DNA from: Octopus vulgaris | Taxonomy: Eukaryota | NCBI GenBank assembly: GCA_951406725.2 | Contig: OX597840.1 | Location: 15,252,001 to 15,316,000 of the forward strand | DNA length: 64,000 nucleotides | Direction of reading: 5' to 3' | Part shown: one piece after another, positions 57,144-60,583 of the stretch | Layout of the letters: each line of letters opens with the position of its first letter | Position numbering within the stretch: position 1 is the first letter of the stretch | Notes under the pieces: model-generated | The model's database searches: none | What the model saw: only the letters and a program-made list of their open reading frames with translations | Told to the model about the DNA's origin: nothing | Position numbers and translations under genes: made by a program

Positions 57144-57554
57144 TTAACCCTTTAGCATTCAGATTACCCTTATTTACATTATTTACATTCGATGGATATT
57201 TACCATCATCTTTGTTGTTAATACAACGTTTTGGCTGATATATCCTCCAGCCTTCTTCAGGTGTCTTGGGAAATTTTTGAACCTGGGTTCTCATTCCTAA
57301 AGTATTTTTCACTGCTGCTGCTGTTGCTGTTGTTGTTGGTGTTGTTGGTGTTGCTGGTGTTGCTGCTGCTGCTGTTGTTGTTGTTCGGGTCACTGCTTAG
57401 AATTGAACTTGGAATCTTGGGGTTAGTAGTGACTATGCCATATGCCCTAACCACTATGCCATATGCTAGTGAGCTTATGGCATCGTGGTTAAGAGTGCAG
57501 GCTACTAACCCCAAGATTCCGAGTTCGATTCTAAGCAGTGATCTGAACACTAAC

Positions 57555-57591
<37 letters not shown>

Positions 57592-57958
57592 TCAAAAAAT
57601 GCCTTAGGAATGAGAACCCAGGTTCGAAATTTCCCCAAGACACTGGAGGGTATATCAGCCGAAATATTGTGTTAACAACAAAAAAGATAAAGACAAATAT
57701 CCATCGAATGTAAATAATGTACATAATTCCTCATCTCATAAATATAGATCAGATTACCCTGCTGAATGTGATGCTTATGTATTCACATTGTTTTGAATTA
57801 ATCATAGATTATCTTATAGCTTTGAGATTTCAGTATGAATGTTTATTTTTAGAATGACATTGTGAAATAGGTGTGAGAGGCTGGATCTAGTCAGTTTGAA
57901 TTTAAAGCAAGTAAACTATGTTAGCTGGATATGGCCAGTTTAAGTGCTGAGAGGTTAA
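57144..57958. mobile_element. TTAA-flanked MITE (piggyBac/Kolobok-like termini) interrupted by the fold-back SINE
   Basis: TTAACCCTTTAGCATT ... AGTGCTGAGAGGTTAA imperfect TIRs. Confidence 0.6.
57171..57748. mobile_element. head-to-head dimer of a tRNA-headed, hammerhead-tailed SINE with 12-bp TSD
   Basis: Left arm (-) ~57171-57465, right arm (+) ~57472-57748; TCAGATTACCCT at 57159-57170 and 57749-57760. Confidence 0.85.
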
Positions 57959-58456: not shown

Positions 58457-58701
58457 CAGGGTGGCCCAAAAGTAGGTATACAACTATCTCAATCGCATTC
58501 ATATATTAACAAAGTGTTCTGAAGAGAATCGAAGAATGTTGCAATGTTGAAGGGGGACATTTTGAGCATCTGAGGGATTGTCTGTTTAAGATATGCATAA
58601 GCAATATGATTGTAAGATAGAAATTTTAATGTAATGAAATGTTTTAAAAGAAATTTAAAGTGACTACGTGATAGCTGTAAACCTACTTCTGGGCCACCCT
58701 G
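58457..58701. mobile_element. Tc1/mariner MITE
   Basis: TA|CAGGGTGGCCCAAAAGTAGGT ... ACCTACTTCTGGGCCACCCTG|TA. Confidence 0.9.
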
Positions 58702-59022
58702 TATATCTCCTTCACAGCAAGACACTTGCACCAATCCCTCTGTCACACTTCACCCTCTCAACACCTGGCATAAAGTCACTTACCCCTCTCCTACAGCACC
58801 ACTCAGATAAGGACTCTTTTTTTTTATTTTCATTTTTTTTTCTCTTGGGTGCAGGTGTGTCTGTGTAGTAAGAAGCTTGCTTCCCAACCACATGGTTCCG
58901 GGTTCAGTCCCACTGCATAGCACCTTGGGCAAGTGTCTTCTACTATTACCTCAGACCAACCAAAGCCTTGAGAATGGATTTGGTAGACAGAAACTGAAAC
59001 AAGTACATCATATAGCGAGGTT

Positions 59023-59146
59023 AACAAACATTAAGACAAGGTAAACATCTCAAGTCATATACATTATTATTATTATTATTATTATTATTGGTCCAATAAT
59101 AATAATGTATATGAGTTGAGATGTTTACCTTGTCTTAATGTTTGTT
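59023..59146. repeat. inverted repeat (~50-bp arms) closing on an (ATT)n/(AAT)n centre
   Basis: AACAAACATTAAGACAAGGTAAACATCTCAA.TCATATACATTATT and its reverse complement, one mismatch. Confidence 0.9.
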
Positions 59147-59302
59147 GTCCTCTTTAACAATTATATATCCACTGCACCAGAAATCTGCAATGGCTCCATA
59201 ACTACCATCTTGGCTTTAACCTAGGAGCCCTAATAATCTGTTACAGCACTTACCTAGCATACCTAATCATTTAGATCACCTGTGAACTAAACCCCCATAC
59301 TT

Positions 59303-59338
<36 letters not shown>

Positions 59339-59606
59339 AGAGCATTATTATTCCTAAAAATAATAACATTAGTGGCCGCAATCGTAAAAACGGTATAGGC
59401 AAAATTAATAATTATATATAAGATATTTAAATATGTTTATATATACTAGGGTACTACATAAGCACCTGCTTTGCTGAAAATAGAAGTCAAAATACTTCTA
59501 AGCCACAAAAGAATCACTAAACACAGGCATGATAGGGAGAAAAATTTAGTTAAATAGGAATAGCATCTTACCTCTGCAAAGGATGCAGAAGAAATGTCAG
59601 TTAATC

Positions 59607-59892
59607 GATATTTAAGAGATGAGGAATTATGTACATTATTTATATTCTTTTACATTCGACGGATATTTGTCCTCACCTTGTTTGTTGTTAACACAACATT
59701 TCAGCTGATATACCCTCCAGCCTTCATTGGGTGTCTTGGGGAAATTTCAAACCTGGGCTCACATTCTTAAGGTATTTTTTGATGTTGTTGTTGTTGTTAT
59801 TATTATTATTATTATTCAGGTCACTGCCTGGAATTGAACTCGGAATCTTGGGGTTAATAGCCTGCACTCTTAACCACTATGCCATATGCCCA
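59607..59892 (-). mobile_element. monomeric third copy of the tRNA-headed, hammerhead-tailed SINE
   Basis: Collinear with 57472-57748 from the head (GGGCATATGGCATAGTGGTTAAG) to the tail (CCTCATCTCTTAAATAT). Confidence 0.85.
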
Positions 59893-60583
59893 TGGAGGGC
59901 TTATAAATCTAATGGGATAGGAGAATATTAGATTTACTTGCCCCCATTACTGCTTGACAATCGGTATTGATGTGGTTACATCCTTGTAACTTAGCAGTTC
60001 CACAAAAGAGACTGATATAATATGTTCTAGGCTTAAAAAATAAGTGCTGGAATTTATTTGTTCGACTAAAATATCTCAAGGTGGTGCTCCAGCATGGCCA
60101 CAGTCAAATTACTGAAACAAGTGAAAGAATAAAACAGAATATATATGTATATGTAGGCACAGGCATGGCTGTGTGGTAAGAAGCTTGCTTACCAACCATA
60201 TAGTTCCTGGTTCAGTCTCACTGCACAGCACAACACCTTGGACAAGTGTCTTCTACTATAGCCTCAGGCTGACCAAAGCTTTGTGAATAGATTTGAAAAT
60301 TTGAAAGACAGGTGTTGAACTCATGATCGTAAGGTTATGCGTTCAATTCCTGGACCGGGTGACACATCGTGTCCTTGAGCAAAACACTTCATTTCACGTT
60401 GCTCCAGTCCACTCATCTGGCAAAAATGAGTAAGCCTGCGACGGACCGGCATCCCGTCCAGGTGGTGAATTTCTACACCACTGAAACCAGGAACCAGCCC
60501 TTATGAGCCTGGCATGGCTCAAGAAGGAACATTTTTATATTATATATATATATATATATATACATACATATATATATATATAT

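Follow-up and report, generated by a model that had tools for sequence, protein, structure and literature searches.

Introduction

Several described systems share parts of their organization with the octopus repeat analyzed here, and what is said of each refers to the passages of the papers cited. Poseidon_Ac of Anolis, a Penelope-like element (PLE), has a single ORF for a reverse transcriptase (RT) with a C-terminal GIY-YIG-like domain and a partial-tandem pLTR (PMC11167929, PMC8557442), a hammerhead overlapping the start of the ORF (PMC11167929) and two 3' ends, which give a one-sided tail of 30–40 nt and an inverted 5' partner (PMC11167929, PMC8557442); the octopus element resembles it in all these respects. 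Inverted partners and one-sided tails are known for PLEs (PMC8557442), and the tail of the anole element has been described as the interval between two internal RT start sites (PMC11167929). Unlike Penelope and Poseidon, the octopus PLE has a tRNA-derived head with A and B boxes in its pLTR, and most copies begin there. The minimal hammerheads of PLEs have a helix I of 5 bp, an extra base between positions 9 and 10.1, a G10.1–C11.1 pair, a palindromic C15.2–G16.2 and no helix III loop, as does the octopus unit, whereas their helix II has 7–8 bp against 5–6 bp in the octopus (PMC4209133).

Terminal repeats with a Pol III promoter derived from a small RNA are also found in the TRIMp3 elements (Cassandra, Helenus, Ajax), which are non-autonomous LTR elements of up to ~1.3 kb, whereas the octopus element is a protein-coding PLE of 2.7 kb; the same account describes Pol III promoters in non-autonomous TRIMs only and takes Pol II to be required both by autonomous non-LTR elements and by the partners on which TRIMp3 elements depend (PMC10886601). 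The SM-alpha repeats of schistosomes likewise combine a Pol III-type promoter with a hammerhead downstream of it, and a link to PLEs has been proposed for them and for metazoan retrozymes; both are, however, non-coding, often tandem and equipped with canonical hammerheads (PMC6765202, PMC7761336, PMC7229834), whereas the octopus unit is part of an autonomous element and inserts as inverted pairs. Finally, tRNA-derived SINEs, among them OK, OR1 and OR2 of octopus (OR2 being described as a CORE SINE; PMC4758252), share with the octopus unit the A/B-box tRNA head, a length of ~300 nt and a very high copy number, but the unit has neither a LINE tail nor an A-tail. The passages of two papers that give cephalopod PLE or SINE counts (PMC13282606, PMC8967140) contain no such structure, and in the open literature we found neither a PLE with a tRNA-derived promoter nor an autonomous element driven by Pol III; subscription papers, Repbase or Dfam may catalogue the family.

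A head-to-head insertion nested in a MITE

The window analyzed is a 64,000-nt stretch of an Octopus vulgaris contig (OX597840.1), in which three ~280-nt copies with A and B boxes had been noted; their coordinates and features were verified (Table 1). Positions within the unit are given as q and counted from the first G of the tRNA-like head, q1, to the unit end, q293. Two copies lie head to head in a MITE which we take to be piggyBac-like from its TTAA ends (57144–57147 and 57955–57958). The 12-mer TCAGATTACCCT has exact matches at 57159–57170 and 57749–57760 and no others. All 11 listed MITE paralogs are continuous across the site and lack the insertion, most of them with one variant of the 12-mer, and because these copies are uninterrupted there the 12-bp target-site duplication (TSD) is real; the claim that both arms arrived in a single event holds.

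Table 1. Features of the nested insertion and of the third copy (positions in the window).
Feature	Position	Strand	Basis
Host MITE, TTAA ends and short terminal inverted repeats	57144–57958		Sequence; 3,821 candidates genome-wide; 11 listed paralogs without insertion
Target-site duplication, left	57159–57170	+	Exact repeat; listed MITE paralogs uninterrupted there
Short arm, PLE pLTR copy from head to ~q260, tail absent	57171–57468	-	Sequence comparison
Minimal type I hammerhead of left arm, G12A	57220–57265	-	Sequence
Centre of head-to-head junction, decayed quasi-palindrome at head start	57469–57470		Sequence; 351 perfect junctions (exact matches) in the genome
Long arm, pLTR copy from q1 to ~q289 with ~28-nt tail	57471–57748	+	Sequence comparison
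Pol III A box, tRNA-Arg-like head of right arm	57478–57488	+	Sequence; tRNA comparison
Pol III B box, right arm	57523–57531	+	Sequence; tRNA comparison
Target-site duplication, right	57749–57760	+	Exact repeat
Third pLTR copy	59604–59891	-	Sequence comparison
Remnant of PLE ORF end and spacer adjoining third-copy head, two 10-nt gaps	59892–59913	-	Sequence alignment
Inverted 22-nt piece of PLE ORF end, exact match	59915–59936	+	Sequence alignment

The short arm has a duplication within its head and a degenerate microsatellite, and the tail of the right arm is ~28 nt longer, in agreement with the ~25 nt of extra tail first reported. Each hammerhead is individually damaged, as had been noted: the left one by G12A, the right one by an 11-nt deletion that spans the core, and that of the third copy (59690–59735) in a core that reads CCAATGA. 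The original prediction saw in the undamaged consensus a minimal type I hammerhead of PLE type with AACGTT as stem III. The hammerhead itself holds and fits the minimal PLE features, whereas the stem has to be redrawn, since by our reading of hammerhead numbering A14 and U17 are part of the core, which leaves ACGU as the palindrome that could form stem III of an active dimer. Stems I and II are present in the MFE fold of one intact copy, cofolding yielded a strand-swapped dimer and not the active one, and a GUU cleavage site is predicted here, of a kind seen in other PLEs too. Self-cleavage of the anole element, the relative studied best, was not required for insertion in vitro (PMC11167929), and by analogy hammerhead cleavage is probably dispensable for insertion of the octopus element.

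The head had been likened to tRNA-Arg(ACG). Its likeness to tRNA-Arg was borne out, and the best match among 35 distinct genomic tRNAs, a sample from which Arg(ACG) is absent, was tRNA-Arg(TCG) (score 62, next 57). The acceptor stem is unpaired (2/7 by eye) while the A and B boxes are kept; ARAGORN did not call the head as a tRNA in the window, and Rfam called neither head nor hammerhead. The scan with structural models that had been proposed was thus negative with Rfam, and the genome-wide pattern count was positive, with 1,690 exact 34-mers of intact core against 0 for the reversed pattern, so that the family is not a product of chance.

A first look gave 4,766 candidates in the genome, and the 18-mer directly after the hammerhead has 12,696 exact matches (pattern control, 0). 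Divergence from the majority sequence amounts to 25% at CpG sites and 3.9% elsewhere, and the family is therefore old; the core boxes are intact in 17 of 90 arms. Near-identical sequence words are present in sequencing runs of six organisms.

Relation of the unit to a Penelope-type element

Comparison of the copies leaves us nearly certain that the unit, whose ~290 nt comprise a tRNA-Arg-like head, an (AAT)n stretch, a minimal hammerhead and a tail, is the pLTR of an autonomous Penelope/Poseidon-type element, a class assignment that rests on domain order and motifs. The 2.7-kb repeat runs from head, (AAT)n, hammerhead and tail through an ORF for RT and a GIY-YIG-like domain to a spacer of ~30 nt and the next head. 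Several loci have in common, upstream of the head, sequence for an RT thumb and a GIY-YIG-like endonuclease (EN) with a stop ~30 nt before q1, and longer copies contain an RT with Pfam RVT_1 matches. The RT and EN-type motifs follow in the expected order in one ORF; a Pfam scan of the EN-containing segment returned no family, GIY-YIG included. There are 371 homologs, and nearly all of the 120 listed have PF00078 and PF26215.

At the other end of the ORF, three loci (L169, L175, L179) and most of 30 further ones have a partial pLTR continuous with its 5' part. An ATG at q131 begins a frame that stays open across the hammerhead, which places the ORF start upstream of the latter. An 847-aa homolog (P0009) aligns over aa 18–846 at 50–59% in three segments, hammerhead included, to a majority sequence with two frame changes at variable A-runs; this alignment begins at aa 18, with 50% across the stretch from q131 to the hammerhead. 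ORF-end sequence is also retained beside the third copy of the window (59892–59936). A search of the genome with a distant PLE protein led to this same family at 30 of 30 fetched loci, and therefore supplied no same-genome PLE control.

The element may accordingly be described as a Penelope-type element with a putatively captured tRNA promoter. PLE machinery had been predicted behind the inserts, and this is borne out. The independent SINE that this machinery was thought to mobilize has to be given up, as the whole unit, head included, belongs to the pLTR, and sequence variants are equally shared by ORF-linked and short copies (9/22 vs 23/65, p=0.8; 87 heads only), so that no separate SINE lineage was found. 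Nor do the copies behave as a retrozyme, being dispersed with ends away from the cleavage site. The original observation is thus confirmed and its interpretation partly supported.

Insertion pattern

Insertions were sampled from the first 96 of 100 listed matches of the post-hammerhead 18-mer, which gave 87 loci and, with 7 duplicates dropped, 80 insertions. Inverted arrangements and TSDs were tabulated in this sample. A head-to-head partner is present in 47/80, and in 42 of these 47 a long arm ending at q282–293 is paired with a short arm ending at q235–272, the inverted one-sided insertion that had been named as a PLE hallmark. Direct repeats of at least 11 nt with at most one mismatch flank 28/47 inverted insertions, compared to 5/528 mismatched flank pairs. 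The back-to-back dimer is the normal PLE insertion of this element.

Both arms of a dimer come from one source. The q64 variant is discordant in 0/14 arm pairs (5.7 expected), q159 in 0/19 (1.9 expected) and q169 in 2/26 (3.7 expected), with no shared-source signal at q181 (3/25, 2.8 expected), and variants common to both arms of a pair stand at 0.54% vs 0.16%. Such a common source is compatible both with snap-back and with two primings or two templates. Junctions are also drawn by a second palindrome at ~q203–210; in vivo cleavage was considered for the 7/127 arms that start at q198–206 and set aside, as this palindrome explains them equally well. No tandem arrays ending at the cleavage site were seen among inserts that are dispersed and inverted, with ends at the head and at q250–293.

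A 9-nt repeat of the tail (q250–270) varies by whole units, which keeps the ORF frame, and the ends of short arms cluster there. Six junction copies (L375, L384, L386, L394, L397, L401) stop just before an A-run of the ORF at ~q520–527, most of them continuing into a second pLTR copy; this suggests a preferred template-jump site or an RNA end, although the query ends near q520 and selection may contribute.

The 5' end of the copies

Copy number drops sharply at the head. CpG-free 18-mers have 12,696 matches after the hammerhead, 6,097 in the head, 1,182 at 20–35 nt upstream and 979 at ~150 nt upstream, and nested exact patterns fall from 4,752 (from q2) to 3,194 (q-1), 1,789 (q-4) and 401 (q-9). 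By our estimate, which allows ~5% divergence per added base, ~14% of heads extend upstream. About 85% of head-bearing arms begin at -8 to +2 relative to the tRNA-like G1, and 38 of 47 head-reaching arms end at -7 to +20. Short copies are ~5 times more numerous than ORF-linked ones.

A quasi-palindrome coincides with this step and could by itself act as an RT stop or a fold-back site. However, many of 35 head-anchored arms end at -3 to +2 with junctions that are unrelated or non-palindromic, or with the partner missing, which indicates the template's own 5' end. Among four junction copies that pass the head two stop there and two extend upstream, and longer templates must therefore also exist. 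RNase P processing at G1 is unlikely because the acceptor stem is unpaired and many ends lie at -1 or -2. It is likely that the step reflects the 5' end of a template made by Pol III.

T-runs along the sense strand

A depletion of T-runs was predicted from the A and B boxes ahead of counting. Along the sense strand of the majority sequence (2,676 nt) there are 31 A4 runs and not one T4; 4.8 T4 are expected by shuffling (P 0.009), 2.9 when synonymous codons are permuted (P 0.029) and 4.6 with base-frequency codons (P 0.005), in a test that concerns one ancestral sequence whose copies are not independent. Windows of the ORF with at least four T in 5 nt, which include TCTTT, TATTT and TGTTT, number 3 vs 15.7 expected, with 0 of 3,000 permutations as low. 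These three motifs have been measured as weak Pol III terminators in mammalian cells, TCTTT at ~50% (PMC8466645). The five-fold depletion is beyond the range of all 34 control ORFs, the ratio being 0.60–1.36 in 30 control PLE ORFs (open over ≥1,500 nt, some of them related to one another) and 0.84–1.25 in representatives of four LINE families of the same genome. A-rich windows are also somewhat low (151 vs 177).

Among real copies, 20 of 30 long ones have 19 T4 combined vs 79 expected, and among four single copies with long open frames three are depleted (P ≤0.025) and one, L264, is not (11 vs 15.6). In contrast, 79 of 80 homologous ORFs of other organisms (L310, whose match spans 3.6 kb, was omitted) have 490 T4 vs 349 expected, and 3/79 are without any. 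No A/B box was found downstream of these 79 ORFs, many of which have little flank. In one of the homologous PLE ORFs (L296:3501-5406) T4 is absent from the matched part, and its pLTR is T-rich with no tRNA-like head; the control PLE pLTRs that were viewed are often T-rich as well, unlike the octopus sense strand with its lack of T-runs. For 33 of 40 genomic tRNA calls a T4 or longer run lies within 40 nt downstream.

The sole motif of the TCTTT/TATTT/TGTTT type in the unit, a TCTTT at q370 (e.g. at ~1578 of L374), follows the second RT start by ~80 nt and might act as a leaky terminator that generates a short template. Two raw RNA runs (X23 and X24, whose species may differ from that of the genome) have equal depth in both mate directions and so look unstranded; their depth profile tracks copy number, start or end clusters are absent at the head and the cut site, and a depth step at q370 was not resolved at the low depth available.

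Discussion

Pol III is commonly regarded as a producer of short non-coding RNAs only, and autonomous retrotransposons are generally taken to depend on Pol II, with the exception of R2, which is co-transcribed from rDNA. A tRNA-type promoter together with a coding strand free of T4 makes it likely that Pol III reads the octopus element. We somewhat favor the reading that the internal Pol III promoter gives rise to the short, SINE-like copies and likely also to the protein-coding element as a whole. For its fullest form we see about even chances: an autonomous protein-coding retrotransposon would be wholly transcribed by Pol III from a captured tRNA promoter, with a 2.5-kb ORF purged of terminators, and would be its own SINE through tens of thousands of run-off arms of the first pLTR.

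Transcription would start near the A at -1 in an upstream pLTR and, for want of a terminator, could continue along the ORF as far as the next pLTR. The PLE protein would, by analogy with the anole element, nick both target strands ~12 bp apart and, as that element does in vitro, initiate cDNA synthesis at two places within the unit, ~q260 and q293. Copying of the first pLTR would reach the 5' terminus of the RNA at the head and run off; the two cDNAs would be joined at this point, often via the quasi-palindrome, to give SINE-like dimers such as 57171–57748, while copying from the second pLTR would produce the ORF-bearing copies. The model explains neither how an uncapped Pol III transcript is translated nor what the hammerhead does, and the TCTTT at q370 weighs against it.

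An ordinary Pol II-driven PLE, in which the pLTR carries a tRNA relic, the 5' step marks a hot spot for RT stops or fold-back at the quasi-palindrome, and T-runs are missing by chance or for another reason, is an unlikely account. The palindrome at the step and the 351 perfect fold-back junctions speak for it, the palindrome at q203–210 draws junctions likewise, and the known promoter of Penelope, in D. virilis, is an internal LINE-like one (PMC2377424), which also speaks against the Pol III model, as does the Pol II dependence assumed for autonomous partners (PMC10886601). It does not account well for the many arms that end at -3 to +2 with non-palindromic junctions or no partner, for A and B boxes kept beside an unpaired acceptor stem, or for T-rich windows rarer than in every control ORF.

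A division of labor, in which Pol III makes a short RNA from the head to ~q370, ending in TCTTT, that yields the SINE-like copies while Pol II makes the ORF mRNA and the long template, seems slightly less probable again. It would place the only weak terminator where a short RNA should end, fit the excess of short over ORF-linked copies and avoid the problem of translating a Pol III RNA, but T-run avoidance covers the whole ORF, which a promoter of short RNAs alone would not need, and the low-depth RNA runs resolved no step at q370. Least probable, and very much so, is an independent lineage of Pol III SINEs or retrozymes that has source genes of its own and uses PLE proteins in trans. Most copies do look like SINEs, with a start at the head, A and B boxes and no ORF, and non-autonomous PLE families occur elsewhere (PMC8557442); against this, the same head lies within ORF-bearing copies, variants fail to separate the two sorts, and no tandem arrays bounded by cleavage sites were observed. 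Moreover, the short copies do not reach beyond the second RT start and therefore lack the stretch of ORF further downstream that was required by the anole protein (PMC11167929).

If the preferred reading of transcription by Pol III is true, a PLE driven by this polymerase represents a new expression strategy, and it opens to test the translation of uncapped Pol III RNA and the role of a hammerhead that overlaps the ORF. A sharp RNA 5' end would also turn the dimers into thousands of natural records of how PLEs form their inverted junctions, a step still undefined. Such copies are likely annotated as SINEs despite being termini of a PLE.

Nesting of the kind seen in the window is frequent: dimers at five further loci (L041, L042, L054, L110, L134) lie in other abundant short repeats, whose empty-site sequence makes the TSD of the nested dimers directly visible. 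Elsewhere in the window, a near-perfect long hairpin about an (ATT)n tract at 59017–59152, with weak Rfam miRNA matches, is probably another fold-back repeat, and a small element with terminal inverted repeats and TA flanks, presumably Tc1/mariner-like, occupies 58457–58703.
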